DNA of 64,000 nt from an uncultured Chloroflexia bacterium (GCA_963810095.1 CAWEMM010000007.1:448001-512000); one strand, 5' to 3'. Shown: positions 44,525 to 63,050, counted from the first letter of the stretch. The notes: generated from the sequence alone by a model not told the origin. Numbers and translations: made by a program.

Positions 44525-45289
44525 TTGGATCACGATATTCTTGCGTTTCCCAAAGACCGGGCCGTCATTGTCGACGCGGGCCGGCTGGCCAGCCGGCGGC
44601 ACGTGGTGCATGGCTTGCTGGAAGTGGACGTGACCGCCGCCCGGGAACGGCTCCGTGCGGCCAAGGCGCGGGGTGAGGACCTGTCGTTTACCGCGTTTCT
44701 CGTGGCGTGTTTCGCGCATGCCATCGGCGCTAACCCGCGGGTGCAGGCAGTTCGCGACTGGCGGGGCCGGCTATGGCAGTTCCACGATGTGGACGTGTCG
44801 ATCCCGGTCGAGGCGGTGGCGGGGAGCGCGGCCATCCCACACATCGTGCGGGCGGCGAACCGCAAGACCCCCGCGGAGATCAGCGCGGAAATCCGGGCGG
44901 TGCAAGCCAGGCCGGAGAGCAGCGCACAGAAGGGCGGGCTCGTGGCAGTGGGTGCACACGCGCCCCGTGTGGCGCGCGACCTCTTCTACTGGGCCATCCG
45001 CCAGAACCCCGCCTGGCTGAAGCAGACCGCGGGCACGACGATCGTGACGTCGGTGGGCATGTTCGGGCAGGGCGGGGGCTGGGGATTGGGCTTCCTGCCC
45101 ATGCACACGCTCGGCCTGACCGTGGGCGGCATCAGCCAGAAGCCCCGGGTGGTGGCGGGCCAGGTCGTCGTGCGTGAGGTGCTCAACCTCACGCTGAGCC
45201 TGGATCACGACGTGGTCGACGGCGCGCCCGGCGCTCGGCTGGCCCGCAGCCTGGTCGAGAATATCGAGAGCGCCGCGCTGCTGGAGTAG
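44525..45289 (+). CDS. Stand-alone 2-oxo-acid dehydrogenase E2-type acyltransferase catalytic domain
   Basis: EVDVT, SFTAF, TSVGMFG and LSLDHDVVDGAP. TTG start follows GAGGTG; no lipoyl domain. Confidence 0.8.
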   Translation: MDHDILAFPKDRAVIVDAGRLASRRHVVHGLLEVDVTAARERLRAAKARGEDLSFTAFLVACFAHAIGANPRVQAVRDWRGRLWQFHDVDVSIPVEAVAGSAAIPHIVRAANRKTPAEISAEIRAVQARPESSAQKGGLVAVGAHAPRVARDLFYWAIRQNPAWLKQTAGTTIVTSVGMFGQGGGWGLGFLPMHTLGLTVGGISQKPRVVAGQVVVREVLNLTLSLDHDVVDGAPGARLARSLVENIESAALLE

Positions 45290-45424
45290 GCGCGCGGCAG
45301 GCGGGTGGGGCCCGTCAGGCGCCCTTGCGGGTTGTCGCACAATCCAGGATGCGCTAGAATCCTTCCGGCGCAGGAATCGGTTCGACTGTTCCAGCGCCGC
45401 ATGTCGTTTACGCAGAGAGGCCCC

Positions 45425-48400
45425 ATGCCCGCACCTCAGTCCATCGTCGAACTTGTCCGGCTCTTCGATCTCCACCGGGACCAATACCGCAGCGGTGCAT
45501 TCTCGGAGGTCGCCGCGCGCCACCAGTTCATCGACCCGTTCTTTGCCGCGCTCGGCTGGGACGTCAACAACAGCCAGGGGTTCGCCGAGCAATACAAGGA
45601 GGTCGTTCACGAGGACAAGGTCAAGGTGGGCGATGCCACGAAGGCGCCGGACTATTCCTTCCGCATCGGCAAGGAGCGCAAGTTTTTTGTGGAGGCCAAG
45701 AAGCCCGCGGTCGACATCAGCCACGACGTCGAGCCGGCCTACCAACTGCGCCGCTACGCGTGGAGCGCCAAACTGCCTCTCTCCATCCTCACCGATTTCG
45801 AGGAGTTCTCCGTCTACGACTGCCGCAGCAAGCCCGACCAGCGGGACAGGGCTTCCAACGGGCGCATCCTGTACCTGAATTACCGGCAGTACGTCGAAAA
45901 GTGGGACGAGATCGCCGGCGTATTCGGCAAGGCCGCTGTGTGGCAGGGCGCGCTCGACCGGTTTGCGGAGGCGAAAGCGGGCAAGCACGGCACGGCAGAA
46001 GTGGACGACGAGTTCCTCGCCGAGATCGAGCGGTGGCGCGACCTGCTGGCACACAACCTGGTCCTGCGCAACCCCGCCTTAAGGGGCCGGGATATCAACT
46101 ACGCGGTCCAGCAGATCATCGACCGCATCGTCTTCCTGCGCATCTGCGAGGCGCGCGGCTCGAGACGCTCGAGCAGCTGCGCGGCCTGCTGAACGGCGGG
46201 GGCACCTACGCCCGGCTGCAAGAGCTGTTCCGCCGGGCCGACCAGCGCTATAACTCCGGCCTCTTCCATTTTGAGGCCGAGAAGGACCGGCGGAGGCGCC
46301 CGACACCCTCACGCCCGGCCTGGCCCTCGACGACAAGGTGCTCAAGGATATGATCGAGCACCTCTACTACCCGGTCAGCCCCTACGAGTTCTCGGTGCTG
46401 CCCGCCGACATCCTCGGTCATGTCTACGAGCGGTTCCTCGGCAAGGTCATCCGCCTCACGCCGGGCCGGGTGGTCAAGATCGAGGAAAAGCCCGAGGTGC
46501 GCAAGGCCGGCGGCGTTTTCTACACCCCCACCTACATTGTGGACTATATCGTGCGCGAGACGGTCGGGCCGCTGCTGGAGGGGAAGGCGCCGCTGCAAAT
46601 TGGCCCGAAGCATCCTTCGACTCCGCTGCGCTCCGCGCAGGATGCCATTGGAGCGCAGGCGAAGCATCCTGAGCGGAGTGGCGGGGCTGTTTCCGCCACG
46701 CAGTCGAAGGATGCGCCCCAGCCCCTGCGCATCCTGGACCCCGCGTGCGGCAGCGGCTCATTCCTGCTCGGCGCGTACCAGTTCCTGCTCGACTGGCACC
46801 TGCAAGCGTACCTGCAGGACCCCGAGCGCTGGCTGAAGGGAAAGCAGCCGCCGCTGGAGGCAGCCACAGGGGGGAGTTACCGCCTGTCCATTGCCGAGCG
46901 CAAGCGCATTCTGATGAACAACATCTACGGCGTGGACATCGACCCGCAGGCGGTCGAGGTGACCAAGCTGTCGCTGCTGCTGAAGGTGCTGGAAGGCGAG
47001 GCGGCGAAGGACCAGATGTCCATGCAGTTCGAGCGCGTGCTGCCCGACCTGGAGCGGAACATCAAGTGCGGCAACTCGCTGATCGGGTGCGATTTCTACG
47101 AGGGGCGGCTGCAAGGCGTGGACGAGGACGCCGAGCGCCGGGTCAACGCGTTCGACTGGGAGGACGAGTTCAAGGACGCCATGGCGAGTGGGGGATTTGA
47201 CGCGGTGATCGGCAACCCACCGTATGTGCGGCAAGAGGAGCTGAGTGAGTTTAAGGGTCACTTCCAGCAGCACTACGAGACATTCCGGCCCACAGCCGAC
47301 CTTTATGTTCTGTTCATTGAATTAGGGCACCGTCTACTCAGGGACGGTGGGCTGTACGGCATGATTGTTTCTAACAAATGGTTGCGAGCGGCATACGGCG
47401 AGCCTTTGCGTCGGTATCTCACAACTCAAGTGACAATTCGGGAAATTGTCGACTTTGCGGGCCTTCCGGTTTTCGAGGGAGCAACCGTACGCACGATCAT
47501 CATTTTGTCTGCAAAGCATCCCGGTACGGGCACGAATGTCCGCTACCTGGCCCCCCTTACAATGGAGGACTTCGCTTCGGTTCGTTCAGGTTCGCGTTTA
47601 CGCGAGTTCGTGGAACTGAAGTCGATTGCCCTGCCTCCTGCAAGCCTGTTACCGGCGGGCTGGTCGTTGTCTGAGCATGCTGCATCCGAGCTAGTGCAAA
47701 GACTGCTCGCGCAGGGCACGCCTCTCAAGCGCTACCTCCCCGGAGGGAAAACGTACTTTGGAGTGAAGACCGGTCTTAACGAAGCATTCGTGGTCGATTG
47801 CGCAACGAGGGATGCGCTAATTGCCGCAGACCCGAAGAGTGCGGAGATACTTCGCCCACTAGTGGCGGGGAGAGACGTCCAACGGTACCACATCGAGTAC
47901 AAGGACAAGTATCTCATCCTGACCGAAATCGGAGTACCGATTCACCGATATCCTGCGATATTTGCCCACCTGAAGCGGTATCAGAGTCAGCTTGAGAAGC
48001 GCTGGGATAAAGGTAACATTTGGTGGGAGTTGCGTCCTTGCGACTACTACGAACGCTTCTCGCAGCCGAAAATCATCTACCCCGACATTGCCGCCACCTG
48101 CCGGTTCACACTTGATCGTAATGGCTACTTCGGTGTAAACACGACCTACTTCCTTCCCGGCGACGACTTGTACCTCTTGGGCCTTCTTAACTCCAAACTG
48201 GCAGTCAGATACTTCTCACATGTCTGCGCTGGCCTAGAGGGAGGCGGTACCGTCTACTTGCGGTTCTTCGGCCAATACCTCGATAACTTCCCGGTCCGCA
48301 CCATTGACTTCGCCGACCCCGCCGACGTCAGCCGGCACGACCGCATGGTGACGCTCGTGACCCAGATGCTCGACCTCCACACGCGGCTCGCCGCCGAATC

Positions 48401-48524
48401 CGTGCCGCAGGAGAAAACCAGCCTCCAGCGGCGCATCGACCAGACCGACAGGCAGATCGAACGGCTGGTGTATGAGCTGTACGGGCTGACCGAGGCCGAG
48501 ATCAAGGTGGTCGAAGGCAGCTAG
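45425..48524 (+). CDS. Fused Type IIG restriction-modification enzyme (endonuclease, N6-adenine MTase, TRD); frameshifts near 46158 and 46295
   Basis: PD..EAK nuclease motif (KAPDYSF..VEAKKP), YNSGLF, GVFYTP, DPACGSG, GNPPY, TaqI_C-like TRD region and VYELYGLT..EI C-terminus. Confidence 0.9.
46610..46714. repeat. Family D palindromic element inserted in frame in the R-M gene
   Basis: 105 bp (35 codons), gcatccttcgact...agtcgaaggatgc, between GVFYTP and DPACGSG. Confidence 0.85.
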
Positions 48525-49193: not shown

Positions 49194-50911
49194 CTACTCT
49201 GCCGGCGCCACCGGACGCGCCCGGCGCTGGCTCGTGTTGGGGATGAACAGCGAGCTGAGCGCGCCCAGCAGCACGAAGATGCTGGCCACCTCACCCGCCC
49301 GCCGCGCGCCGTCGACAAAAGACTGCTTGATGATGGTCGAGACTTCCTTGCCCGCCGCCGAGTTCTCGAAGCCCGCCGGCGCGCCCTGCATGGTCGCACC
49401 CTCGCCCGCACCGCCGCTCTGCTCCAGCCCCTTGACGATGGCGGTCTTGACGAACGGCGGCACGGCCTTGCTGGCATTGAGTTGCGTGGTGGCCGAGCTC
49501 GCCAGCGTCGTCGTCAGCACCGCGCCGATGATCGCGATGCCCATGGCCGCGCCCAGCTGCCGGACGGTGTTGTTGGCGCCCGACCCCGCACCCAGCTTGT
49601 CAAAAGGCACCTCGCTCAACACCACGCTGGTCAGCTGCGCAATGGCCAGGCCCACGCCGACGCCGTAAACCATCAGGATGGGGATCAGCGCGCCGACGCG
49701 GCGCGGTGAGGGAGATCACCCGGCTGAGCGCGAAGATGGCAATCGCTTCGATGAGCATGCCCGACGTCACGACCCACTTCGGGCCGAAGCGGGAGGACAG
49801 GATGCCGGCCGTCGGCGCAACGATCAGCGTCGTCAGTGCGAAGGGCAGCAGCACCAGGCCCGTCTGGAACGCCGACAGGCCGAGCACGCTCTGCAGGAAC
49901 AGCGACAGCACAAACACGAGGCCGAATTCGCCCAAGCGCGACGATGGCGACCGTGATCAGCCCGAAGCGGAAGCTGCGGAACCGGGTGAGCGTGAAGTCG
50001 AAGAGCGGCTCGCCGCCCCGCCGCTGCAGCCGCAGCTCCCACCAGACGAAGACGGCCAGCAGGATCGCGCCGATGAGGAACGCGACGGGCGTCGGCGAAA
50101 TGTCTTTGAGCGGCCAGGTCCAGCCGCCGATCTCGAACGGCTGCTTGACCTTCCACCAGCCGTAGCTCGTGCCCTCGATCAGGCCGAAGACGATCGCGCC
50201 GATGCCGAAGCCGACCAGGATGATGCCGGGGACGTCGAAGCTGAGCTTGCCCGTCCGATGCTCGCGCGATTCCTGGATGACGAAGATCGCGCCGAGGATC
50301 GCGGCCAGGCCGATCGGCACGTTGATGTAGAACGCCCAGCGCCAGGTCGCATTGGTGGTCAGCCAGCCGCCGATCAGCGGACCGAGCGCCGCGGCCGCGC
50401 CCGCCACCGCGCCCCAGATGCCGAACGCAATGCCGCGCGCCCGGCCTGTGAAGGTGCCCGACACGATGGAGAGCGTGGAGGGCGAGGTCATGGCCGCGCC
50501 GAAGCCCTGGAGGGCCCGGGCCGCGATGAGCATTTCGATGGTGCGCGAGCCGCCGGCGAGGACCGAGCCGATCACGAACGTGGTGACGCCCGCGATGAAG
50601 ATGCGCTTCCGCCCCACCTGGTCGCCGATGCGGCCCCAGGTGATAATGAAGGCCGCAAAGATCAGCGAGTAGACCGAGTTGACCCACTCGAGCTGCTTGA
50701 ATGAGGCGTTGAACTCCTTCTGAATCGAAGGGATGGCAACGTTGACGATCGTGCCGTCGATGATGACGATGGCCAGGCCCAGGCTGAGCACCAGCAGCGT
50801 CAGCCACTGGCGCCGGGTGATCCGGTTGCCCTCCTCCGGCCCGCCTGGCGCCGGCCGTGGGTTCTCCCCGGCGGGCCGCTGGGCCGCGGTGGGGGTCGAT
50901 GTTTCGGTCAT
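49194..50911 (-). CDS. MFS drug:H+ antiporter (DHA2, 14-TMS); frameshifts near 49935 and 49705
   Basis: DGTIVNVAIP, GRIGDQVGRKR, GPLIGG, WRWAFYINVP and RQLGAAMG spread over three frames. Confidence 0.88.
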
Positions 50912-51489
50912 ACTGCGTTCCTCCGTGGTACACCATTCAGGAAAAGTGCGACCAGCCGCCGGGCAATCTCCTCGGGCGGGATCGCGAGCCGCTCCGATTT
51001 GCCGACAAACGTGTTGACCAGGCCCAGGTACGCCCAGGCCAGGAACTCGGCGGCGGGGCGGTCGGCGCCGTCCAACTCGGCCCCCAGCGCGCTCGCGAGG
51101 GGATCGAACACCTCCTCGCGAAACGCCTGCTGCACCGTCTCCCGGTGCCCCTGGTCCTTCACGTGCGCCATATCGCGCATCATCGCGGAAATGTCCGTCG
51201 CAAAGCTCGTCAGCATCGCGGTGGCCAGCGCGGTGAGCCTGCCGGGCAGCGGACCGTCCGAGCCCAGGATCTCCCGGTACCCGCGCAACTGCCGCAGGAT
51301 GACGTGGACAAACAGCGTTTCTTTGTCGTGAAAGTAGTAATACAGGGTGGGCTTCGTGATGCCGCAGCGCCGGCACAGCTCGGCGACGGACGCGCCCCGA
51401 TAGCCGCTCTCCTGGAAGAGCGACCACGCCTCGCGCACGATGCGCTCGGCATTCTCGTTGCTCGGGACGGGACAGACTAGCTCGGCCAT
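50908..51489 (-). CDS. TetR-family regulator
   Basis: GYRGASVAELCRRCGITKPTLYYYFHDKE HTH; overlaps the MFS start by 4 bp. Confidence 0.92.
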   Translation of the reverse strand: MAELVCPVPSNENAERIVREAWSLFQESGYRGASVAELCRRCGITKPTLYYYFHDKETLFVHVILRQLRGYREILGSDGPLPGRLTALATAMLTSFATDISAMMRDMAHVKDQGHRETVQQAFREEVFDPLASALGAELDGADRPAAEFLAWAYLGLVNTFVGKSERLAIPPEEIARRLVALFLNGVPRRNAV

Positions 51490-51552: not shown

Positions 51553-51594
51553 GAAGCAGGGAGAGAGGCGTGTGTGGGAGCGTCTGCGCGCACC

Positions 51595-51943
51595 CTTCGA
51601 CTCCGCTCGCTGCGCTCGCGCCGCTCAGGGTGCTCGGTGATGTGAAGGCATCCTGAGCGGAGGGCTTTGCGAAGCAGGGCCCGCAGTCGAAGGATGGGCT
51701 CGCGCGCCGAAGGGCTCCTTCGACTCCGCTCGCTGCGCTCGCTTCGCTCAGGATGCTCCGTGATGTGAAGGCATCCTGAGCGGAGGGCTTTGCGAAACAG
51801 GGCCCGCAGTCGAAGGATGGGCTCGCGCGCCGAAGGGCTCCTTCGACTCCGCTCGCTGCGCTCGCTTCGCTCAGGATGCTCCGTGATGTGAAGGCATCCT
51901 GAGCGGAGGGCGTGGCGGAGCAAGGCCCGCAGTCGAAGGATGC
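51595..51943. repeat. Tandem array of three 123-bp family D palindromic units
   Basis: Units start at CTTCGACTCC 51595, 51718 and 51841; near-identical, with no unique spacers. Confidence 0.9.
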
Positions 51944-51962
51944 GCTCGCGCCGCCTTGCACT

Positions 51963-52619
51963 CTACGCGGCCCGGCTCCGCAAGCCGGCCTCGATCCGTG
52001 CCAGCCGCTCCTCGATGCCATTCAGGACTTCCGCCTGCTGGCGGAGGGTCTTCTCGATCTTCCCATACCCGTTCATCAAGCCGGGCAGGAGGAACGCGGC
52101 GCCGGCCATCGCGGGAAACTCCATCGCCACCTGGGCCACTGCAACCCGGTGGGCCAGCGCGACGGACCGTCCGCTGGCGTACGCGCGCAGGAACTCCACA
52201 TCGTAGACCACCGCGGCCCGGTCCTCCACCCCCACCCACATGCCCACGCACGTGATGCCCGAGTGGCTGAGCGATTCGGCGAGCGAATGCAGCGAATCGT
52301 CGCGGCTGCCCGACCAACACGCGCTCAGCAGCACCACGCCGGGCGGCGACTGGCGCATCATGCACGCCAGCCACTCCGCGCTGACCGGTCCATCTGCGGC
52401 CATCAGCCGGCCCGGCCCGCCGTGGCCCGACCACAACACCACGTCCCACGCCTCGCCAAGCCGGCCGCTGACCGCCGCCCGCGTCGCCCGGCCCCCGCCG
52501 CACACCACGAGCTCCACGTCCGCCAGCTCCGACACCTGCACCAGTTCCTCGGTCCACGCCAGCGCCGGCAGCCCACGCGCCTCGGGCGCAATTAGCAGGA
52601 TTCGCATGCGATCGCTCAT
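51963..52619 (-). CDS. CHAT (caspase/HetF-like) domain protein with C-terminal coiled coil
   Basis: RILLIAP, VVLWSGHG (His) and VVLLSAC (Cys) dyad motifs, CVGM..VEDRAA, F.RAY; heptad-like tail. Confidence 0.7.
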   Translation of the reverse strand: MSDRMRILLIAPEARGLPALAWTEELVQVSELADVELVVCGGGRATRAAVSGRLGEAWDVVLWSGHGGPGRLMAADGPVSAEWLACMMRQSPPGVVLLSACWSGSRDDSLHSLAESLSHSGITCVGMWVGVEDRAAVVYDVEFLRAYASGRSVALAHRVAVAQVAMEFPAMAGAAFLLPGLMNGYGKIEKTLRQQAEVLNGIEERLARIEAGLRSRAA

Positions 52620-52640
52620 TTCTCGTCCGATCTAGCCCGG

Positions 52641-52734
52641 AAATGGGACACTGATGCAACTGATTGAGCTGATCTGCACTGTCCTCTGGGTAGGAAGCGT
52701 GATCATCAGTCCGATCCGTTCAATCAGTGTCCTA
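52641..52734. repeat. Family A palindromic element inside the phage-like operon
   Basis: aaatgggacactgatgcaactgattgagctgat...atcagtccgatccgttcaatcagtgtcc. Confidence 0.8.
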
Positions 52735-52742
52735 GTCTCCCT

Positions 52743-53396
52743 TTACCCTCTCAACACATAGCGGGCGTCCGCCGTGCGCCGGTTCAGCGCGTGCGTGTCT
52801 GCCGTTGCATCCGCTACGTCCACGGCCCCTCGGGTCCACAGGTTCCCGTTCCCGTCGATCGTCAGCACGTTCCGCCCCGTCCCTACCTGCACCAGCACCC
52901 GCGAGCCATCCACCCCCGCACTCCGCTCTGTCACCAGCCGCAGGCGCACCGCCGCGCCCAGGTCGCCGTCGACGAACAAGTCCAGCTGGGCCGGGTCGCC
53001 CGCCAGGTCGGCCCGCGGCGCCCCGATCTCGAGCTGGTGGCCCCAGGCGTCGGTGGCGGCGAGGTAGGCAATATCCTCGCCGTCGGCCCCGATCCAGCGC
53101 AGGCGGTCGTCGGCCGAGTCGCCGCCCAGCGTCGACAGCCGGCCCCGCACGAGCAGCTCGGTCCCCGTCCACTTAAGCCAGAACGCCGGGCCGCCCACGG
53201 AGAACCGGGCGACCTTGCCGGCCGTGACCCCCAGCCAGAACCCCGCGTGCCCGTCGTCGTCCGGCCCATCTTTCCCGTAGCGGATCACCCCGCCGGGCAT
53301 CACGCTCAGCACCGTGCGGATCACCTGCGAGAAGCGGGGCGCCGGCTCCGCGCCGCCCACGTCCCACCCGCCCTTGCCAATTCTCCCCCAAGCCAT
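52743..53396 (-). CDS. Putative phage fibre/spike-like virion protein
   Basis: Gly/Trp-rich beta segments (GFWLGV..RFSVG..LKWTG..L.VRG) and C-terminal ADATADTHALNRRTADARY resemble tail-fibre modules; position in the operon fits. Confidence 0.45.
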   Translation of the reverse strand: MAWGRIGKGGWDVGGAEPAPRFSQVIRTVLSVMPGGVIRYGKDGPDDDGHAGFWLGVTAGKVARFSVGGPAFWLKWTGTELLVRGRLSTLGGDSADDRLRWIGADGEDIAYLAATDAWGHQLEIGAPRADLAGDPAQLDLFVDGDLGAAVRLRLVTERSAGVDGSRVLVQVGTGRNVLTIDGNGNLWTRGAVDVADATADTHALNRRTADARYVLRG

Positions 53397-53409
53397 AGCA
53401 GACCTTTCC

Positions 53410-53486
53410 GCCACGAATTTAGCGAATGCGTCACGCCAGCCGTGCGAGGTTTTCGTCCAATTCGCCTAATTCGTGTAATTCGTGGC
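53410..53486. repeat. Family C palindromic element
   Basis: gccacgaatt...aattcgtgtaattcgtggc. Confidence 0.8.
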
Positions 53487-53495
53487 AAACCTCGT

Positions 53496-54176
53496 CTACA
53501 GCCCGTACGGGCCCCAGTTGGGCTCGGCCGCGCCCAGCGCCGTGGCTCCCAGCCAGGCCAGCCGGTCCATGACCTCTTTGTACCGGTTCCACGCGCGCCG
53601 GCTCTCCTCGCCGAGCTGCGCCAGCACGATCGTGCTGCCGTCGGTCACCAGCGCCTCGTCCGTCTCCAGCTCGTAGTGCGCCGCGAACTCGACATACGCG
53701 CTGAGCGCCTCCAGGTGCTGCGGGGGCACGGTGATCACGGCGTCGTCCGCGCCGGCCGCCGGTTCGGGGTGCGGGCCCCAGTACTCCACGAGAGCGGTCT
53801 CGCCGTCATGGACCGCCGCCGCAAAGACGATGGTCGCATTCGCTGCGCTCTCCGACTCAGCCGCGCCGCGCAGTGCGTAGCAAGCGTCGCCGGCAACAAA
53901 CCGGTCTGACCACTCCGCCGTGCACGCCAGGAACCGGGGCGGGAGGAGGCCCACCGGGTGCTCCACCGCGATGATGCGGCCCGCGCCGAGCCCGCCTGGC
54001 AGCGCGTAAGCCTGCGTGCCGGCCGACAGCGCCAGCTCTGCCCGCAGCCGGCGGGGGAAGTGCGCCGAGTAGAGCCGCACTGCCCCCTGCACCCACCGGT
54101 CGAGCGTTGCGTCGGGCCACGCCGTCGCGTCGGAGAGCGTCAACCTGAGCAGCGCCCTCAATTCTCCAAGCGTCAT
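53496..54176 (-). CDS. Putative phage head-completion / head-tail adaptor protein
   Basis: MTLGELRALLR..LSD...W.DA.LD.W...AV pattern typical of adaptor N-termini; lies after the capsid genes; AGGAGG RBS. Confidence 0.6.
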   Translation of the reverse strand: MTLGELRALLRLTLSDATAWPDATLDRWVQGAVRLYSAHFPRRLRAELALSAGTQAYALPGGLGAGRIIAVEHPVGLLPPRFLACTAEWSDRFVAGDACYALRGAAESESAANATIVFAAAVHDGETALVEYWGPHPEPAAGADDAVITVPPQHLEALSAYVEFAAHYELETDEALVTDGSTIVLAQLGEESRRAWNRYKEVMDRLAWLGATALGAAEPNWGPYGL

Positions 54177-54192
54177 AGCCACCTCCTAGGCC

Positions 54193-54279
54193 GCCACGAA
54201 TTGCACGAATTTGACGAATGTGCACGAAGCTAGAAGTCGGTAGTTCGTAGAATTCGTGTTCATTCGTGCAATTCGTGGC
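54193..54279. repeat. Family C palindromic element
   Basis: gccacgaattgcacgaatttgacgaat...attcgtgttcattcgtgcaattcgtggc. Confidence 0.8.
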
Positions 54280-54288
54280 ACAATCGTC

Positions 54289-54648
54289 TTACCCTTCCAG
54301 GAAGGTCATCACGACCGAGCAGTTCTGTGCGGCCGTGCCGCTCGTGCCGTCAAAGTCCACCGTGACAAGCAGGACCGTGCCGGCCGGGATGTGCGGGTAC
54401 TCGCCATCCACGAAGTCCGCCCGCCCATACTCGGCCGCGGTCTGGTCGCCCACGTCCTTCAGCGCCAGGTAGTCGTCGTCGCCGTTCGTCCCCGTGTTGC
54501 CGATCTTCACCTGCGCGTTCGTGTCGACCGACGAGGCCAGCGACACGTGCGTCAGCGTCAGCGCGCACGGCGTCTTCCACCGGAACGTGCCGTTCGCCGC
54601 CATCGTCCCGTGAAAGTGCACCGGGACCACCACCCTCATCCCATCCAT
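54289..54648 (-). CDS. Small beta-rich protein after the major capsid gene (putative capsid decoration protein)
   Basis: 119 aa with an AGGAGG RBS, immediately downstream of the capsid gene. Function inferred from position only. Confidence 0.55.
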   Translation of the reverse strand: MDGMRVVVPVHFHGTMAANGTFRWKTPCALTLTHVSLASSVDTNAQVKIGNTGTNGDDDYLALKDVGDQTAAEYGRADFVDGEYPHIPAGTVLLVTVDFDGTSGTAAQNCSVVMTFLEG

Positions 54649-54693
54649 GCTTCCTCCTGATATTTGCGTTTGGCACAGGCACGATGCTCACAA

Positions 54694-54769
54694 GAAGAAC
54701 CGAAGGACCAAAGGTTCACAAAGGTTAACTAGGAGCAGCCTTCGTGGCGCTTGGGTTCTTTGGTTCTTC
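54694..54769. repeat. Family B-like palindromic element
   Basis: gaagaaccgaaggaccaaagg...ttgggttctttggttcttc. Confidence 0.6.
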
Positions 54770-54784
54770 CTGTGACGCCACCTC

Positions 54785-56797
54785 TCACCCGCCGACGTTG
54801 GCCTTGTACATTCCGCGGTAGTCCTGGGGGCCGACGGCGAAGAACCAGCGCACCTTCACCGGCATCACGTCGTTCGAGAACATCAGCCCCGACGACGGCG
54901 ACGCGACCGAGAAGATTTCGGGTGTCTCGCCATACCGGAAGCCCATCCCGATGGTCGGGTAGAGACGCGGGTCGGCAACCGCGGCCCAGTTGTTCGTGTC
55001 GGTCCACAGGTCGACGACGATGATGTGCCGCCGGGCCGCTTCGAGCCGGGCGTCGAACGTGCTGCCGCCGGTCGAATACGGGTTAATGTCGTTGTTGGCC
55101 GAGCCCAGCACACCTTCGCTGGCGAAGATCGTCAGCGCGGTGGCTTCGAGATCGGGCGGCACCAGCAGGTACTTGGGCGACGTCAGGCCGCCCAGCCGCT
55201 CGCCCGACCCCAGCTCCGCCTGCTTGCGCATGGCCAGCTTCGCCGCGCCCCAACTAGCCGATGACAGCGCGGTCGTGCCCAGGTTGCCGTGCCCGCTCGC
55301 GTCGAAAAGCGCAACCCCGTCCGACAGGGTCGGACCCACGCCCGACGCCGCAGTGAAGATGCTCGACACGGCCTTGTTCAGGGTGAGCCAGGCGCTCTGC
55401 GCCAGCGCGGGGCCGACGCTGCGGATGCGGCCCGTGTCGTCCTTGTCCATCGCCTCCAGCGTCAGCCCGAGGTAGCCGCCGCGCTTCTGCCAGCTCGCGG
55501 TCTGCGCGGCGTCGGTCCAGTCGAGCTCGGTGTAGGCCGCGCCTTCGGCCACGGCCGGCAGCTCTCCGACGCCGCCGAGCGTCGTCCACTTCACCGTTTG
55601 CAGCGTCGCGAATGACTCGCGGCGCACCACCGGCTCCCACCAGCGCGGGTACTGCTGAAACTCGTTGACCACGACCTTGTTCAGCACGTTGGCGACGATG
55701 TTCGCCATCGTGGTCGAGTTCACGTTCGCCAGGTAGACGCGATCCTCGTGGAAGCGGCCCGTCATCTCCAGGTCGCCCGACAGCAGGTGGTAGAACTCGC
55801 GCAGCCCGCTCAGCGGCCGCACCCCGCCCCGGGTCGGCCGCCCCTCGGCCAGCGCAGTGAACGCCTCCGTCACCTGGTCCAGCCCGTTCTGCATGCCGCT
55901 CAGGCGGATGCCCTGCACAGTGCGGGCCGCCTCGTCGCCCGCCCACGCGGCCTTGACCCGGCTGATGCCGGCGTCGAGCTGGTCGACGGTCCAGTCAGCC
56001 GCCAGCCCTGCCCGGACCACGGTTCGCCACCGGGCAGGCAGGCCCGACACGGCCAGGCGTGCCTCCAGCACCGACTCCCGGGCCGCGCCCATCAACTGCG
56101 ACAACTCGACGCCGGCCCCGGTGTCACCCCGCTCTACCGCGTCAACCTGCCCGCTGGCCGCCGCGTCCCGTCCCGTAGTTTCCTCGCCCATCGAATCCCC
56201 TCCTGTGAACCGGTCGATTGGCTCGACCGCGTCGAGCGCCTCAACCCCATTGAGCACGTGCAGGAACTCGCCGCCTGCCGCGGGCCGGTACACCGCATCC
56301 ACCTGGTCGACCCGCACGATTTCACGCACTTCCCGCATGCCCGCCCCATCGGGCGGGCCCACCCGCACCCACGGCACCGCGCTGAGCCCAATGGCCGGCA
56401 CCGGCCGGCCCTCGGCCCTGGCCTGCAGCCACCCGTCCACCAGCCGCCGGAACCCGTTGGCCACATCTGTGTCCGCCAGCCGGTAGTCCGCGACGACCGC
56501 GCCTGCCGTGGTTCCGCCCGGAAGCGGCGGAACCGAATCGTCCCAGTGGGCCTTCTCCGTCATCCCCAGCAACCTCTCGAGCATCGGGTGCCCGTGCTGC
56601 CCGGGCTGGGGGGCCGGCGGATTCAGGAACGACGCCAGCCCGTCAAACTTGTGCGCGTCCTGCCTGAGCACCGCGGCCGGGCACCGCAGCCCCTTGCCGA
56701 TCCATTCGCCCGGCCGGATCAGCACGGCCCGGTAGACCCGTCCGGCCCGGGGCTCCAGCTCTGCATCGCAGCACACCCGCTCGATCTCATCCTCCAA
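54785..56797 (-). CDS. Prohead protease/scaffold-major capsid fusion (Mu gpT-like, HK97-fold capsid)
   Basis: N-terminal protease-like region ending IGLSA...VDAVYRPAAGGEF; C-terminal capsid motifs LPAVAEGAAY, GLTLEAMDKDD, LFDASGHGNL, PKYLLVPPDLE and DYRGMYK. TTG start follows GGAGGTG. Confidence 0.8.
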   Translation of the reverse strand: MEDEIERVCCDAELEPRAGRVYRAVLIRPGEWIGKGLRCPAAVLRQDAHKFDGLASFLNPPAPQPGQHGHPMLERLLGMTEKAHWDDSVPPLPGGTTAGAVVADYRLADTDVANGFRRLVDGWLQARAEGRPVPAIGLSAVPWVRVGPPDGAGMREVREIVRVDQVDAVYRPAAGGEFLHVLNGVEALDAVEPIDRFTGGDSMGEETTGRDAAASGQVDAVERGDTGAGVELSQLMGAARESVLEARLAVSGLPARWRTVVRAGLAADWTVDQLDAGISRVKAAWAGDEAARTVQGIRLSGMQNGLDQVTEAFTALAEGRPTRGGVRPLSGLREFYHLLSGDLEMTGRFHEDRVYLANVNSTTMANIVANVLNKVVVNEFQQYPRWWEPVVRRESFATLQTVKWTTLGGVGELPAVAEGAAYTELDWTDAAQTASWQKRGGYLGLTLEAMDKDDTGRIRSVGPALAQSAWLTLNKAVSSIFTAASGVGPTLSDGVALFDASGHGNLGTTALSSASWGAAKLAMRKQAELGSGERLGGLTSPKYLLVPPDLEATALTIFASEGVLGSANNDINPYSTGGSTFDARLEAARRHIIVVDLWTDTNNWAAVADPRLYPTIGMGFRYGETPEIFSVASPSSGLMFSNDVMPVKVRWFFAVGPQDYRGMYKANVGG

Positions 56798-56866
56798 TTT
56801 CGCACCTCCTGCGCCGCGCCTGTTTGCCTGTTCGACAATCACCCCGCTGCGCCATACAAGGCGAGA

Positions 56867-56968
56867 TGAAATAGGACACTGATTGAACTGATCCGACTGA
56901 TTGCCACGATCTCTTTCCCGCAGGACAGTGCAGACCAGTTCAAGCGGTTGTATCAGTGTCCTATTTCA
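56867..56968. repeat. Family A palindromic element
   Basis: tgaaataggacactgat...atcagtgtcctatttca terminal inverted repeat. Confidence 0.85.
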
Positions 56969-56970
56969 GA

Positions 56971-57249
56971 TCAGTAGTACCCGATCGTCACGGCGACGTC
57001 GCCGCTCTGCGACCCGACGTTGATCCCGCCGCCGATCACGAACCTGCCGTGCCAGCACACCGTCTGCCCCGCGACGACCGAGACCGTGAGGTACGTCCTG
57101 CTGTCCTCCGCATCGGCGATCGAAATCACTGCGGACGCAGCGCCGGTCAGCTCGGTCACGATCAGGTCGGTGAGCACGCACGGGCCCGTAATGACGTCCT
57201 GGTCCTCGCCCATCGACAAGGTGACCATCACCGGTAGACTTGCAGCCAT
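56971..57249 (-). CDS. Small beta-rich hypothetical virion protein
   Basis: 92 aa with an AAGGAGG RBS, between the portal and capsid genes. Confidence 0.55.
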   Translation of the reverse strand: MAASLPVMVTLSMGEDQDVITGPCVLTDLIVTELTGAASAVISIADAEDSRTYLTVSVVAGQTVCWHGRFVIGGGINVGSQSGDVAVTIGYY

Positions 57250-57288
57250 CTGGTTTCCTCCTTTCTCCAAGTTCTATGCCATCCCGCG

Positions 57289-58653
57289 TTAGCGGCCCCG
57301 TTCCGACTCTCCCAGGATCTCCGCCAACTCCTCCTCGTCCGGCGTCTCGCCGGCAAACTTGAGCACCGTCCGCACCACGAGCCGCCGCCAGCGGCGTCCG
57401 CCGACACCCTGCCCGCTGACCGAGGCCAGTGCTGCGGCCACCTGGGCCGCCGAGCTTCCCAGCTCCGCATTGTCGGCCGGCGAGATGTCGGGGACGCCCG
57501 TGCGGATGTCCGCGAGCGTGGCCGGCTCGCCCGCCACTTTCCCCAGCCGCACCGCCCGGTTGTACGCGGCCAGCCCAGTGGTCGCCAGCGCCCAGGCGAA
57601 GTACTGCTGGCGGGCCCGCATGAAGCGCGAGCGCTGCTCGCCCATGGCTTTGGCGGTCGCCAGGTTCGCTTCTTCGCCTTCCCCCATGTCGACCAGCCCG
57701 ACGCCGGGTCCACCGGCGACGATCATCCAGCGGATGGCCCGCCCGTCCGCCTGCGCGTCGTTCGCATGCAGGGCCGGCGCCACCGCCTGCCATTCCTCAC
57801 TGTCCTTGTCGAGCACCAGCACCGAGCCTGGTTCCGGCGCCCGCGCCCACTGCAGCTTCTTCTCCTCTACCCGGGCGCCCGGCACCTTGACGACCCACAG
57901 GAAGGCCCGCACTGCCGCATTGAGCATGGTCCGGTCCTCGAGCCACCTCGAGTACCGTTTCAGCCACACCAGCACCGGCGCCAGGTCCGACTCGCCGCGC
58001 ACGCACCCCACGGGGCGGTTGACCGCGAAGTGCAGGCACACGGGTGCGGGCGCATCGACCCCCAGAGCCGCAGAAGCGTCAGCTTCTGCCAAGCCGGAGC
58101 CGAAGGCTCCGGCCGCCGCCCACACCCGCCCGTCCGGATAGTCCGGGTCGTCAAGGCCGACCATCTCGTGATAGGCGATCTCCGTCTCGTAGTCTCCCGG
58201 AGCCGTGATCACCCGGTCGATGTTCGAGGCCGGCAGCGCCCGGACGTACGACATGCCGTCGGCCGGGTTCATGTGCAACGTGATGAAGAGCTCGCCCGAC
58301 CGGCTGAGTTCCTCGCACAGGCTGTATTGGCGCAGCGCCATCTGATTCTGCTCGTGCGCCCAGAAGGCCCGGAGAAAGGCCGCCAGGTCGGTACGGTCCG
58401 ACGTCAGCGTGATCCCGTCACCGCAGACGAACGACGATACCAGCGACACCAGCCGCCGGGCCAGCGCATTTCGCCGCCACGCCTCGCGGGCATCGGTGAA
58501 CTCCTGTGACAGCACTTCCCACGGCTTGTCCAGGCCGGTGCCCGACGACTGCACCAGCCCGTCGTTCTTCTGTCCCGGCGCAACCGGGTCGACGCGCGCC
58601 AACGCCAACACGGCTGTCGACGCACGGAGCAAGAGCTTCTGCACCCAAGTCAT
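57289..58653 (-). CDS. Phage portal protein
   Basis: Follows TerL; AWRRNALARRLV, L.AFW...NQM, ELSRSGELFI, RGESDL..VL.WL.RY..WLEDR and ANLATA motifs. ATG at 58653 follows GAGGGAG. Confidence 0.8.
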   Translation of the reverse strand: MTWVQKLLLRASTAVLALARVDPVAPGQKNDGLVQSSGTGLDKPWEVLSQEFTDAREAWRRNALARRLVSLVSSFVCGDGITLTSDRTDLAAFLRAFWAHEQNQMALRQYSLCEELSRSGELFITLHMNPADGMSYVRALPASNIDRVITAPGDYETEIAYHEMVGLDDPDYPDGRVWAAAGAFGSGLAEADASAALGVDAPAPVCLHFAVNRPVGCVRGESDLAPVLVWLKRYSRWLEDRTMLNAAVRAFLWVVKVPGARVEEKKLQWARAPEPGSVLVLDKDSEEWQAVAPALHANDAQADGRAIRWMIVAGGPGVGLVDMGEGEEANLATAKAMGEQRSRFMRARQQYFAWALATTGLAAYNRAVRLGKVAGEPATLADIRTGVPDISPADNAELGSSAAQVAAALASVSGQGVGGRRWRRLVVRTVLKFAGETPDEEELAEILGESERGR

Positions 58654-58680
58654 TTGATTCGCTCCCTCGATAGAAATCGC

Positions 58681-58773
58681 ACGCAGATGATGCAGAGCCG
58701 CTGCGATGGGCGCTGATGAGCCAGACTGGGGTGATGCATTCTGGCAATCCCTCGCACCGGCGTTGATCTGCGT
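58681..58773. repeat. Degenerate family A palindromic element
   Basis: acgcagat...atctgcgt ends, between TerL and portal. Confidence 0.5.
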
Positions 58774-58778
58774 CCTGT

Positions 58779-60466
58779 TCACCACCCACCCGTTTCCCCT
58801 GAATCGATCTCCCAGGCCGGCGGGATCACGGCGCTCTCGCCGCTGCCCGTCCGGCAGTATTTCGCCGCCGCGGCCGCCAGGCACCAGGCGATGCAGCGGT
58901 CGTCGTGATCCCCGGGCGGTGCGGCGAGTGCCGCGCCGGTGAATGCGCTCAGCTGGCGCAGCGTCTCAGCGTCACGGACCCTGGGCGCACGCCCGCCGCC
59001 GCTGCTCGAGGCTGCCGTCCCGCAGCAGGTCGGCCGCTGCATCGACCGCCAGCGCCTTGTTCTTCGCGGTCGTCAACCAGCCCGGCTGGCCGTCGAGCCC
59101 GCGCAGCACCGCGGCGCGGCTGCCAATCCCGTCGACGCCCTCGCCAACGCTGTTGGCGCTCTCGCGCAGGGCTAGGAGCACCGCATGGCCGTGGTTGTTT
59201 CGCTCGACGAGAACGCCCGCCTGAGCCCCGCCGGCCGCGATCCACCGCCCTAGCGCCGCCAGCCCACCCGCGAATGTCGCAGGCTCGAAGCGCCCGGCCC
59301 AGACTGCAACCTGATCCCCGGTCACCGCATCGAGCACGCACGCGGCGCTCTCGTCCGACTGCGGGTTGCCCCCGGCCGGGTCCGCCCCGATCACGTACCA
59401 CCGGCCGGGCCGAGGGCTCTCCCAGACCGTCAGACCGTTCAATGCCGGAAGGCCGGTTTCAACACAAAGGCACGAAGACACGATGTTGTCGGCACCATCT
59501 CCTGGTGACTTTGTGACTTTGTGTTGAGATCTGTTGGTCATCGGAGCAGTCCCGGTATCATCTGCCCCCGTGCACCACTCGGCGGCGAAGCGGGCATCGC
59601 TCGACCGGGCGGCCAGCGCCTCGACATCCGTCGCCGGATACTCCGCATAGAGCGAGTCAAGCGACCCAGAGCGGGCCCAGATGTCGCGTTTCACCGCTTC
59701 GTACCACTCGACCGTGCGGTCGGGCCGGGCCGACCAGGGCAGAAACACCGGAGCGTAGCCGTTCTCGCTCACTCCGGAGGTGCTCATCCCGGAGGTGCTC
59801 ACCCCCGAGGTGCCCGCGCCCTTCGCGGCCTGGTAGATGCGCTTGAACGTGCTGCCCGGCGCGCCCTTGTCCACCGTCGACAGCAGCACCATCTGCCCGC
59901 CCCCGTCGATGGTTGGCTTCACGGCATCGAGCAGGCTTTGCAGGTCCCGGTTGCCCGCCGAGCGCGCAACGTAGTCTGCTTCGTCCACGAGGGCGAATGT
60001 GCCCGTGTAGGACCGCCCGCCCGTGGTAGGGAAGGCCAGGGCCGCACTGCCGTTGGAGAGGCGGAACTCATGCAGGTTGTTCACCAGCACCTCCCGGGCC
60101 TGCATGGGCTCCGGCAGCCGGGCGTACATCCCGACGAGGCGGAACGACAACAGGTGTGTGGCTTCGGCGTCGCGCTTGGAGAACAAGCAGCGCCGTCGCC
60201 GCGGGACGGAAGAGCATCAGCCACAGCGCATAGGCCGTTGTCAGCCAGCTCATACCCAACTGACGGGCCTTGAGCATCACGACCAGTCGCTCGCTCTGCA
60301 GCACCTCCGCGACCTCGACCTGGCACGGCCACAGGTGGAATGGCCGCCATGACCGGCTCGAGGCGTCGTACACTTGCACCCAGCGGTCGCACCAGTACGG
60401 GAAGCTCTTGGCACATTTCAGCCGCTCTTCTCGGATCTGGGCGTCTCGGCTCCCTCGTCGCTGCAT
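58779..60466 (-). CDS. Terminase large subunit (frameshifts near 60186 and 59000)
   Basis: Q-motif LWPCQ, Walker A KARQLGMS, Walker B ALVDEAD, coupling motif LLST, nuclease motifs IGADPAGG, VERNNHG and HDDRCIA. Confidence 0.88.
59459..59527. repeat. Family B palindromic element inserted in frame in the terminase gene
   Basis: 69 bp (23 codons), tcaacacaaag...ctttgtgttga, in the ATPase-nuclease linker. Confidence 0.8.
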
Positions 60467-60837
60467 GGCTCATCCTCTTGGGCGAACCGGCGTAGCTGCT
60501 CGAGCATGTCGTCGGCCGAAGGACCGGCCTTGTCTCGCTTTCGCTCTGCCCGGGGCGCCTGGCGGGCGGGCAGCCCCTCCGTGTAGTCGGCAATGAAGCG
60601 GGCCGCGCCGCGATCGCCGTCGAGCGCCATCGTCCACAAGACCCGCAGCAATCGCTCGAGCCGCGTGTAGGTCGCAGTCTCCGTGCGGCCTTCCCCCGAA
60701 CCGTCCTGCGCCCCCGCCTCGACGTCGGTGAACTCCACCCGCTCGCGGCCGATGGCCCTGCCCAGCGCAGCAATTGTGCTGCCGCGGCGCGGCCGTCCGT
60801 CCGGGTTACCACTCTGCCCCACCTTCCATCGTGCCAC
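60418..60837 (-). CDS. DUF5681-like putative terminase small subunit
   Basis: WKVGQSGNPDGRPR signature and A.DGD..AA.FI.DY.EG.P; directly upstream of TerL. GTG start follows AGGAGG. Confidence 0.75.
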   Translation of the reverse strand: MARWKVGQSGNPDGRPRRGSTIAALGRAIGRERVEFTDVEAGAQDGSGEGRTETATYTRLERLLRVLWTMALDGDRGAARFIADYTEGLPARQAPRAERKRDKAGPSADDMLEQLRRFAQEDEPCSDEGAETPRSEKSG

Positions 60838-61153
60838 TGCCGTATACCTCCTGTAGCTCTGCCAGCGTGACAATCCCGTGCGCCACGCACCAGCCCACCA
60901 GCCCCGCCTGCGACCGGGCGCCGGTCTCCTCGTACAGCCAGCACAGATGCCGCCGCACCGCCTGCTGCCCGATGCCCAACCGCCGCGCCAGGTCTTCCAC
61001 CGTCTCCCCCAGGCTGATGCCGCGGGCGATCTCGCGGCGGCGCTGGCCGGATGCGTGCATTACCCGTGCCTCGTCCGGCGCGGTCCGGCCGCAAACCGGC
61101 TGCCGCTTCGTTCCGAGGGCGTGCTGCTGTGAACAGGGTCGATCTTGAGTCAT
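60806..61153 (-). CDS. Stand-alone LuxR-type HTH regulator
   Basis: GETVEDLARRLGIGQQAVRRHL..LY..TGARSQAGLV.W...HG matches a LuxR C-terminal HTH; no receiver domain. Start uncertain. Confidence 0.7.
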   Translation of the reverse strand: MTQDRPCSQQHALGTKRQPVCGRTAPDEARVMHASGQRRREIARGISLGETVEDLARRLGIGQQAVRRHLCWLYEETGARSQAGLVGWCVAHGIVTLAELQEVYGSGTMEGGAEW

Positions 61154-61181
61154 GGTTGCCGCTCCGGCCGCACTGGCCGCC

Positions 61182-61245
61182 AAACAAAAGGGGTCGCCGC
61201 CGCGACCAACGCCTCAAAAGGGCGCTGCTCGCCTGCGACGACCCC
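61182..61245 (-). terminator. Long GC-rich hairpin with U-tract between the leader gene and the head operon
   Basis: GGGGTCGTCGC..GCGA..AGCGCC-loop-GGCGTT..TCGC..GCGGCGACCCC followed by TTTTGTTT. Confidence 0.7.
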
Positions 61246-61268
61246 GGGACTCTTTCACCGCCGGCAGG

Positions 61269-61421
61269 TCAACTGCTTGATTCGGTTATCTTCTCGTCGA
61301 CGCTCCAGATAACACGAGCGACGCGACCTTTCTCGACGACGACGGTGACGCTGCCCCAGCCGCCCGCCTGCACGATCTTCTCGACCAGCCAGCGGATGTG
61401 TTGGGCCAGGCGCTCAGACAT
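61269..61421 (-). CDS. 50-aa leader protein, YezD/DUF2292-like (below the ORF-track cutoff)
   Basis: GGAGGTG RBS; MSERLAQHIRWLVEKIVQAGGWGSVTVVVEKGRVARVIWSVDEKITESSS*; G(W/Y)GSVT.V...G.V pattern. Confidence 0.65.
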   Translation of the reverse strand: MSERLAQHIRWLVEKIVQAGGWGSVTVVVEKGRVARVIWSVDEKITESSS

Positions 61422-61474
61422 GGAGCACCTCCGGTTTTCGGGAGTAGGGTTTCGGGGCCGCCTTTGTTTGATCT

Positions 61475-61509
61475 AGAACATATATACTACTGGATCAGGG
61501 GAAAGTCAA
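61475..61509 (-). promoter_or_regulatory. Sigma70-type promoter overlapped by a putative LexA (SOS) box
   Basis: Minus strand TTGACT-17 bp-TATATA; AGAACATATATACT (61475-61488) resembles the GAAC-N4-GT(T/A)C LexA site. Confidence 0.55.
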
Positions 61510-62850: not shown

Positions 62851-62855
62851 ATCTG

Positions 62856-63050
62856 AAATAGGACGCTGATGCGACTGATTGAACTGATCTGCACTGTCTT
62901 TTTGAAAGAGATCAGGCGAATCAGTCTCATCAGTTCAATCAGTGTCCAATTTTAGAGCGGGACACTGATCCGACTGATTGAACTGTTCTGCACTGTCTTT
63001 TCGAAAGAGATCAGGTGAATCAGTCTCATCAGTTCAATCAGTGTCCAATT
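62856..63050. repeat. Two tandem family A palindromic elements
   Basis: Near-identical ~95-bp copies (62856-62952 and ~62960-63050) between convergent genes. Confidence 0.85.

Follow-up and report, generated by a model that had tools for sequence, protein, structure and literature searches.

We analysed a stretch of 64,000 nucleotides (nt), hereafter the window, from the genome of an uncultured Anaerolineae bacterium (GCA_963810095.1, CAWEMM010000007.1:448001-512000; contig C7 of the assembly G000, which has 16 contigs and is 88.5% complete). Open reading frame (ORF) listing and a gene call based on the GC content of third codon positions delineated in it a co-oriented run of about 9.5 kb on the minus strand (51963-61421), which an earlier note, made from the sequence alone, had picked out as phage-derived and which the ORF listing and the Pfam and PHROG matches bear out as such. 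The block encodes a head and packaging module, namely a TerS-like protein, the terminase TerL, a portal, a prohead protease fused to the capsid protein and a podovirus-type adaptor, followed by a fibre-like protein and a stand-alone CHAT (caspase-like) peptidase. We tentatively interpret it as a capsid-forming element that is fixed in the chromosome and goes back to small temperate podovirus-like phages; it might work as a hybrid of a capsid-forming phage-inducible chromosomal island (cf-PICI) and a gene transfer agent (GTA), and the window copy of it may be partly eroded. The data fit neither a freshly dead prophage nor a classical single-copy GTA; they fit a family made up of integrase-bearing mobile forms, integrase-less resident forms kept by selection over at least the span of a species divergence, and plain remnants.

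Two pairs of sister lineages document the resident forms; in them the block persists vertically under purifying selection. The loci L031 and L032 come from two species of a single genus and are colinear to either side of the block, their nucleotide identity being 91% in the block and 82-94% in the flanks; L030 lies at the same site. L033 and L034 have the upstream flank and the block in common. By the Nei-Gojobori method, the block genes of L031/L032 show a synonymous divergence (dS) of 0.16-0.38 and a nonsynonymous to synonymous ratio (dN/dS) of 0.07-0.26, the flanking genes 0.22-0.34 and 0.08-0.11, respectively. For L033/L034 the corresponding ranges are 0.10-0.47 and 0.05-0.54 (TerS being highest) in the block, and 0.19-0.38 and 0.11-0.25 in the flanks. 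The L034 portal and the L032 fibre were not called and are hence unscored in their pairs; dN/dS is at most 0.23 in 13 of the 15 block genes, with TerS at 0.26 and 0.54. These four copies of the block contain no broken ORF, and we infer that neutral sequence at such divergence would hold many stops and frameshifts. Purifying dN/dS and conserved flanks, which the earlier note had named as a check on its view of a vertically kept system, are seen in L031/L032 and, with the upstream flank, in L033/L034.

The capsid also tends to follow the host. Among seven genomes, capsid divergence co-varies with RpoB divergence in 15/15 pairs once G012 is excluded: RpoB identities of 98.1%, 95.7%, 90-92% and 87-89% go with capsid identities of 93.5%, 91.8%, 65-68% and 61-65%, respectively. 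G012 departs from this trend, with a capsid identity of 44% at 88-89% RpoB identity and a protease that is not fused to the capsid. Simple vertical descent is argued against by the presence of two lineages of the block in each of the genomes G005 and G006, at different loci, and by the absence of the block from closer genera when it is present in more distant ones. Vertical maintenance holds up as regards the orthologous site, the flank-like divergence and the low dN/dS in the two sister pairs, but not as regards the patchy spread, the two lineages per genome and the different loci.

Relatives of the capsid recur widely in the phylum. We found 364 stretches encoding them in Chloroflexota genome records (one genome per species) and 315 further contigs in IMG/VR. 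Of the 364, 80 were kept and clustered with the window, giving 81 loci; 77 of the 80 carry the labels Chloroflexota, Anaerolineae or Ardenticatenaceae. Direct terminal repeats were present in none of 80 IMG/VR loci. Gene clustering of the 81 loci defines a family core of TerL-portal-capsid-(s119)-adaptor, where s119 is a small beta-rich protein, with the portal cluster represented in 62 loci, the adaptor in 51 and s119 in 27. The distant clades of the family add early genes, integrases (Phage_integrase, 2.3e-28), lysins of the GH25, M23 or amidase type and post-adaptor proteins of 550-900 amino acids (aa), their IMG/VR contigs reaching 27-45 kb; such relatives are temperate phages of the ordinary podovirus-like kind.

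One subclade, made up of the window, L029-L037, G001:C25, G005:C4, G005:C10 and G024:C5, keeps the order TerS-TerL-portal-capsid-adaptor-fibre-CHAT, in which the fibre and CHAT genes alone come after the adaptor and host genes come next, the flanks differing between lineages. Its fuller members additionally code for a 308-aa beta-helix-like protein, a holin-like membrane protein (Holin_SPP1, below threshold) and an M23 peptidase or amidase; reduction has gone furthest in the window copy and the G024 lineage. An intact tyrosine integrase adjoins one of the five copies with long flanks, that of G005:C10; no PF00589 or PF00239 recombinase is encoded on the contigs of G001:C25 and G005:C4, and the nearest one to G024:C5 is about 135 kb away. 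At the G005:C10 locus (L022:4534-7671), the 3' end of the integrase gene (the last ~50 codons) occurs twice more within 3 kb downstream, at 72-100% identity, on either side of host-like genes; such copies might stem from att-like duplication or from integrations in tandem. In L037, a Vut_1/YhhQ-type transporter (8.6e-9) and a 212-aa protein are inserted between the adaptor and the fibre (L037:14128-15196); we suspect the latter to be DpdA-like, and the two could be cargo for 7-deazaguanine DNA modification.

Within 41 related genomes, the capsid ORF is matched in 12, G000 included; without G000, it is found in 9/24 genomes of the family and 5/7 of the genus. Sporadic distribution and closest homologues inside complete prophages had been set out beforehand as signs of a decayed prophage. 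The spread is indeed patchy, at 6/33 genera sampled, yet intact orthologous copies sit in sister species; one close relative does have an adjacent integrase and the distant relatives are phage-like. Remnants also form part of the picture. G000 itself has two more: C12:719371-723426, with an HTH_36 plus IstB-like (DnaC-like) AAA gene, a DUF5681 gene and a truncated TerL, and C15:53792-58502, with adaptor-fibre-CHAT, a HicB/DUF433 gene and a broken tyrosine integrase. The aligned C-terminal part of an intact 215-aa database protein, P0036, matches the C15 CHAT fragment, and the frameshift in that fragment may hence also be an artefact. Elsewhere, L035 is without TerS, TerL and CHAT, whereas L226 keeps just the 3' end of the adaptor and the fibre-CHAT pair next to the host flank that also borders the full copy L227 (99.6% identity); a chimeric origin is possible for the L226 contig.

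The window copy has no recognisable means of its own to move, replicate, lyse the host or build a tail. No PF00589 or PF00239 recombinase lies nearer than ~385 kb to the block on its contig, no tRNA gene is present in window 40000-64000, no direct repeat of at least 11 nt is common to both block ends, and DNA homology to the relatives ends where coding ends. There is no primase-replicase ORF between the flanking host genes, and Pfam and PHROG recognise in the block neither a lysin or holin nor a tail-tube, sheath or tape-measure gene. The earlier description of a head and packaging module without integrase, att repeat, replication, lysis or tail genes is hence sustained. Its suggestion that tail genes might lie at another locus is not: a comparison of the recurrent proteins of the 80 loci with the whole of G000, at 88.5% completeness, yielded no tail or lysis locus related to the family, and searches with PF05065 and PF10145 returned nothing. 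The sheath gene encountered at C7:402309 (Phage_sheath_1, 1.2e-9), 97 kb away, belongs to a contractile-injection-type locus (C7:400349-423199, ~46-97 kb before the window and the block) that has no capsid gene nearby and in which, by eye only, a tube-like protein, a gp5/VgrG-like spike, a PAAR-like protein, large proteins of baseplate size and a SARP-like regulator can be made out. This locus is probably an extracellular contractile injection system (eCIS), which does not suit a podovirus adaptor. Joints in metagenome contigs (e.g., 50212>59046 and 56902>48638) were considered as signs of excision and rejected, their short sides being 20-34 nt and several ending in repeats. A comparison with empty sites was precluded by divergence: the desaturase of the flank is 69-73% identical in congeners and on other contigs there, and TetR has one weak match.

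Table 1. Genes and repeats of the phage-derived block, listed in the direction of transcription (window coordinates).
Feature	Position	Strand	Evidence or remark
'Leader' ORF, 50 aa	61269..61421	-	GGAGG Shine-Dalgarno; DUF2292 sub-threshold (E 0.073)
Small helix-turn-helix (HTH) protein, LuxR/GerE-like by eye	60806..61183	-	HTH_5, HTH_20, HTH_23 sub-threshold, E 0.002-0.007
TerS-like DUF5681 protein	60418..60873	-	Pfam DUF5681 2.9e-10; directly upstream of TerL
TerL, N-terminal piece (ORF 60068-60466)	60187..60466	-	phrog_5989 6.6e-12; Walker-A-like KARQLGMS
TerL, remainder, +1 frame	58972..60186	-	Walker B ALVDEAD and nuclease domain; TerL pieces match phrog_2, phrog_5989, phrog_38407
Portal	57289..58884	-	phrog_10963 1.6e-31
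Small protein s99	56971..57270	-	No Pfam/PHROG family
~95-nt host repeat copy resembling a miniature inverted-repeat transposable element (MITE), between s99 and capsid gene	56872..56967	.	BLAST match C7:504872-504967
Prohead protease (~aa 35-195), linker/scaffold and HK97-type capsid domain (aa 376-681), single ORF, 685 aa	54785..56842	-	Phage_capsid_4 3.8e-31; phrog_29592 3.5e-53
Small beta-rich protein s119	54289..54648	-	No Pfam/PHROG match
SU10-type (podovirus) head-to-tail adaptor	53496..54182	-	PF24175 SU10_adaptor 5.5e-11; phrog_399
Fibre-like protein, 223 aa	52743..53414	-	Conserved C-terminal ~30 aa absent
MITE-like host repeat where the fibre gene 3' end would be	52640..52734	.	BLAST and translation of downstream region
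Stand-alone CHAT (caspase-like) peptidase, 218 aa, C-terminal coiled coil	51963..52619	-	Pfam CHAT 8.8e-8

The N-terminal ~160 residues of the capsid ORF match no Pfam or PHROG family, and a profile search of the Protein Data Bank with the protease domain gave a chance match (E 0.4), which we discarded. An AlphaFold2 (AF2) model of this domain reached a mean predicted local distance difference test score (pLDDT) of 87, and its best Foldseek match is the T4 prohead protease gp21 (5jbl; probability 1.00, TM-score 0.55, E 4e-3), with the herpesvirus assemblin proteases next; in the domain, H49 and S120 are invariant in 7/7 homologues. The modelled fold and the conserved Ser/His pair support a prohead protease of the HK97/T4-gp21/assemblin fold. 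The protease-capsid fusion of the earlier note accordingly stands, on the predicted fold instead of a sequence match. By capsid, the closest cultured phage is the Microcystis phage Mae-JY22, at 30% identity, and all 75 capsid matches are below 60%, so that no cultured phage is close.

The earlier note took TerL, with all its ATPase and nuclease motifs, as intact, which is wrong for the sequence as assembled: a 1-nt frameshift at ~60186-60188 splits it between two frames. The junction is in frame in 5/5 relatives examined, and an independent short-read metagenome contig of 228 nt that differs from the window by 4 mismatches lacks a single nt, the one at 60188, which restores ...ATALLFSKRDAEA... 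in agreement with the homologues. It is the single contig that crosses 60188, and comes from a slightly different strain; the runs X1-X4 cover the block in fragments. The assembly also carries rpoB in two frames (G000:C14:146935-150808), a gene that is one ORF of 1143-1391 aa in the 25 relatives with a single uncut match. A split rpoB is likewise seen in G008 and G043, other relatives with few contigs and low completeness, which suggests long-read indel errors that touch every frameshift call in G000. In the window, the gene for an MFS (EmrB-like) transporter (49194-50920, minus strand) runs through three frames, with switches near 49700 and 49940, and is either a pseudogene or another case of assembly indels. 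Because the contig omits the base at 60188 and because rpoB and the MFS gene are broken too, the TerL frameshift is probably an assembly error. The linker between the ATPase and nuclease domains of TerL further contains an in-frame 15-nt x3 tandem repeat (59767-59811; GVSTS-like pentapeptides), at an alignment gap of the relatives compared by tblastn.

As for the remaining genes, the true start of the HTH protein probably lies inside the called ORF, at 61153 or 61060, that of the TerS-like protein is probably the GTG at 60837, preceded by AGGAGG, and that of the portal probably the ATG at 58653, which has a ribosome-binding site. Shine-Dalgarno-like sequences precede about 7/11 starts; the earlier note had seen strong ribosome-binding sites on most genes. 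The names 'LuxR HTH' and 'leader protein' find backing only in generic HTH profiles and in DUF2292, respectively, all scoring below threshold. Homologues of the HTH protein do occupy the equivalent position in G001:C25 and G005:C10, and small ORFs similar to the 'leader' precede the block in L029 and G005:C10. Four ORFs (s99, s119, the 223-aa 'fibre' and the 50-aa leader) have no Pfam or PHROG family. Of these, s99 is swapped for a lipoprotein-like protein of 227-254 aa in another lineage, and s119 is possibly a decoration or cement protein, its neighbours in the protein atlas being viral hypothetical proteins (score 0.96), with a cement family at 0.78 only. The adaptor scores 43.7 bits for PF24175 against a cut-off of 27. 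A scan for promoters and terminators gave no signal above shuffled sequences, and Rfam had 0 matches. The flanks are ordinary host genes, as had been claimed and as family matches confirm: one holds TetR, the frameshifted MFS pump and Usp, the other a fatty-acid desaturase (FA_desaturase). Left of Usp/MFS/TetR (43780-48524) are a transposase-like HTH fragment, an HSDR_N protein and an Eco57I/MmeI-type restriction-modification methylase; the block thus adjoins a defence or variable region.

The fibre gene stops ~30 codons early relative to 6/7 aligned homologues. The 'fibre-like' window protein has no family match, and a longer relative gives a sub-threshold PB4_spike match (9.5e-4); an AF2 model from a 7-sequence alignment was discarded as unusable (pLDDT 39.6). 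The CHAT protein scores 32.4 bits over a Pfam cut-off of 24, and its His/Cys dyad (H66 and C101) is invariant in 14/14 sequences, which places it by sequence among the predicted CHAT/caspase-like peptidases. Its homologues form 60 clusters of ~125-263 aa, a family met only in this type of element, and in some relatives the gene comes after the amidase. It is both the terminal and the best-conserved gene of the block, with a DNA identity of 73-83% against 66-81% for the others and the lowest dN/dS (0.066) in L031/L032. That remnants retain it suggests an independent function, for which release or manipulation of the host would be a guess.

The ~95-nt MITE-like repeat has inverted ends and gives 84 BLAST rows genome-wide; besides the two copies inside the phage-derived block (Table 1), another is found in the window at 62855-62997. 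Altogether, the intergenic regions of the block hold three host-specific repeat insertions that are absent from the blocks of relatives, which indicates long residence. A 9-nt-periodic motif, AATTCGNNNAATTCG, is found at window positions 7997-8076, 53459-53482 and 54197-54275 (10 in the window against 0.26 expected) and has 52 exact matches at 26 loci genome-wide, against ~0.1 expected. As copies stand upstream of the adaptor and the fibre, we considered it as an operator of the element and rejected this, with 0/12 loci of relatives having it at 0 mismatches; it is host-specific and could be the site of a host regulator or a small repeat. Similarly, a 123-nt x2.9 tandem repeat between TetR and CHAT (51594-51951) was dismissed as an end of the element, being a dispersed family of palindromic intergenic repeats with 88 BLAST high-scoring pairs at 28 places in the genome and weak matches in G024.

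The resident forms encode the parts required for assembling, maturing and filling a capsid and for capping the portal with an adaptor, and neither nozzle nor tail. If the block is a resident capsid-forming element, its action can be pictured as follows. The HTH protein would turn on the single leftward operon; the protease-capsid fusion would build around the portal and process itself; the DUF5681/TerS-like protein and TerL would package chromosomal DNA by the headful; and the SU10-type adaptor would close the portal and bear a short fibre, the product being a DNA-filled particle without a tail of its own. Since the copy is without nozzle, lysin, integrase and replicase, release and delivery would have to come from elsewhere, most simply from a co-infecting relative that gives its post-adaptor tail proteins and lysis functions. 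Such a compatible helper is conceivable, as the adaptor family is common to the larger relatives with post-adaptor proteins of 550-900 aa. The SU10-type adaptor further implies that a borrowed tail would be built on the capsid and not joined to it preformed. As there is no integrase, the element would depend for its spread on helper functions and on homologous recombination in the recipient, and this blurs into GTA-like behaviour. A stronger version, which we consider rather unlikely, makes this a new class of tail-less, integrase-less Anaerolineae capsid islands, kept through speciation and packaging in situ, that borrow podovirus tail and lysis functions, or depend on CHAT for release, and re-enter by homologous recombination.

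Several observations weigh against a resident capsid-forming element. The absence of an integrase or replication gene means that it is not a satellite in the defined sense. The fuller relatives carry an M23 peptidase or amidase and a holin-like gene, which the window copy does not, and nothing homologous to the relatives' post-adaptor, lysin and tail clusters turned up in the rest of G000. The conserved C-terminus of the fibre is lost from the window copy, with a ~95-nt host repeat in its place, and the TerL frameshift, if real, would mean that packaging is dead. The selection was measured in sister lineages and not on the window copy. Finally, the patchy spread across the family and the commonness of remnants are what decaying prophages would produce. 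A serious rival, although on balance an unlikely one, is accordingly that the block is an inert prophage remnant, a head module left after the loss of integrase, regulatory, lysis and tail genes, as yet with few mutations and with no present function in this genome. The frameshifted TerL, the fibre 3' end replaced by a host repeat, the second repeat upstream of the capsid gene and the missing lysin, holin and beta-helix genes are as such an eroding remnant would have them, as are the two further remnants in G000, the truncated copies L035 and L226 and the close relative with an integrase. However, TerL and the fibre end aside, all 10 ORFs are full length relative to their homologues, and the frameshift is absent from the independent contig in an assembly that breaks rpoB too. 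The inactivating changes seen in the window copy are one frameshift, a likely artefact, and one truncated gene, and selection as measured in the sister lineages is purifying. Equally integrase-less copies have stayed intact with low dN/dS in two sister pairs, which is incompatible with neutral decay.

The persistence of these copies might instead point to a true GTA, host-controlled and vertically inherited, that packages random host DNA to the benefit of the host and has its release and delivery functions in the block (fibre, CHAT) or at unlinked loci. The missing integrase and replication genes, the orthologous position with flank-like divergence and purifying selection in sister species, the capsid divergence that follows RpoB and the colonisation by host repeats would all be in keeping with this, and the fuller relatives have lysin, holin-like, spike-like and fibre genes abutting host genes without an integrase. 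We nonetheless regard it as improbable: genomes with two lineages, different loci in congeners, integrase-bearing relatives and remnants, and a presence in just 6/33 genera sit badly with a GTA, and there is no nozzle or tail and, in the window copy, no lysis gene, the relatives' post-adaptor proteins being without homologues elsewhere in G000 and the sole tail-like locus found there being the eCIS-type cluster at odds with a podovirus adaptor. Least probable of all is that the selected unit is the terminal fibre-CHAT pair, e.g., a module for defence or abortive infection that has a caspase-like effector, on which the head genes hitch-hike. The high conservation of CHAT, its invariant dyad and the remnants C15 and L226, which keep (adaptor)-fibre-CHAT with the head genes gone, agree with it; nevertheless, the head genes also have low dN/dS, the CHAT family is met only in this element type, L226 is possibly a chimera, and the fibre partner in the window is truncated.

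Anaerolineae are abundant in digesters, sediments and soils and have barely been cultured, and we know of no gene-transfer vehicle in them. Judged by titles and the openings of abstracts, which are no proof that nothing is in print, the papers found describe neither such an element nor a characterised GTA of Chloroflexota, in line with the earlier note, which knew of none in this lineage. If the stronger version, with a new class of islands, were true, Chloroflexota would in effect have a first GTA/satellite hybrid, and no earlier one would have a caspase-like gene in its core. A head-only island that recurs and is under selection would bring a new phylum, and connectors of the podovirus type, into the range of capsid-forming satellites or GTAs. 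It would also offer a concrete locus to seek in virome and particle-DNA data and prompt one to ask what part a conserved stand-alone CHAT protease plays in an operon of virion genes. Should the block be only a remnant, the survey would nonetheless have brought out a sizeable group of Anaerolineae phages that has no name yet, with 364 genomic places and 315 IMG/VR contigs.

Among known systems, the lambdoid podoviruses Stx phage 933W/VT1-Sakai and mEp043, along with Mae-JY22, have the same single-ORF protease-to-capsid fusion, with 29-30% identity in the capsid domain; Mae-JY22 matches over 81% of the capsid ORF and in the portal too. Unlike the block, these are complete phages of 41-60 kb with tails, lysis and replication genes. 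In SU10 (Kuravirus), a nozzle, a needle and long and short fibres stand behind the adaptor. The block adaptor matches the SU10 family PF24175 above the gathering score, whereas a 223-aa fibre-like protein is all that the block has of that kind after it. GTAs of the RcGTA type are phage-derived head and packaging clusters without integrase or replication genes that are vertically kept at a fixed chromosomal site. The block resembles them in lacking self-mobility (no integrase, no replication gene), in its fixed site and in the purifying selection in sister species. It differs in having no tail module and, in the window copy, no lysis gene, with no locus for completing or releasing the particle found elsewhere in G000 (88.5% complete), and in the multiple lineages and remnants per genome, patchy genera and integrases in close relatives of its family.

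The cf-PICIs are described as making tail-less, DNA-filled capsids that acquire phage tails (He et al. 2025 preprint 10.1101/2025.02.11.637232). The SatelliteFinder definition (PMC10085698) has an integrase at one end, a primase-replicase, a regulator of the AlpA/MerR/Stl type and TerS-TerL-portal-protease/capsid, with no tail or holin; the same text reports satellites mostly from Proteobacteria and Firmicutes and contains 'Chloroflex' 0 times. As the earlier note had observed, the integrase and the primase-replicase are absent from the window copy, the former within ~385 kb; the close relative G005:C10 does have an integrase, and the nearest thing to a replication gene is the HTH_36 plus IstB-like AAA gene before TerS in the remnant C12 only. 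No AlpA-type regulator is recognised either, the putative HTH protein (60806-61183) having only sub-threshold generic matches. The host phylum, Chloroflexota, is different as well, as are the podovirus SU10 type of the adaptor and the extra fibre and CHAT genes; this adaptor is the one head-tail connector that Pfam and PHROG recognise in the block, no second being found. What the two have in common is a compact island of ~10-14 kb, which can be present in several copies per genome and is predicted to produce DNA-filled capsids without tails, with its own TerS (here by DUF5681 and position), TerL (here frameshifted in the assembly), portal, protease and capsid (fused in some cf-PICIs) and head-tail adaptor, and with neither tail nor holin. 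The cf-PICI is the closest functional analogue of the resident forms.

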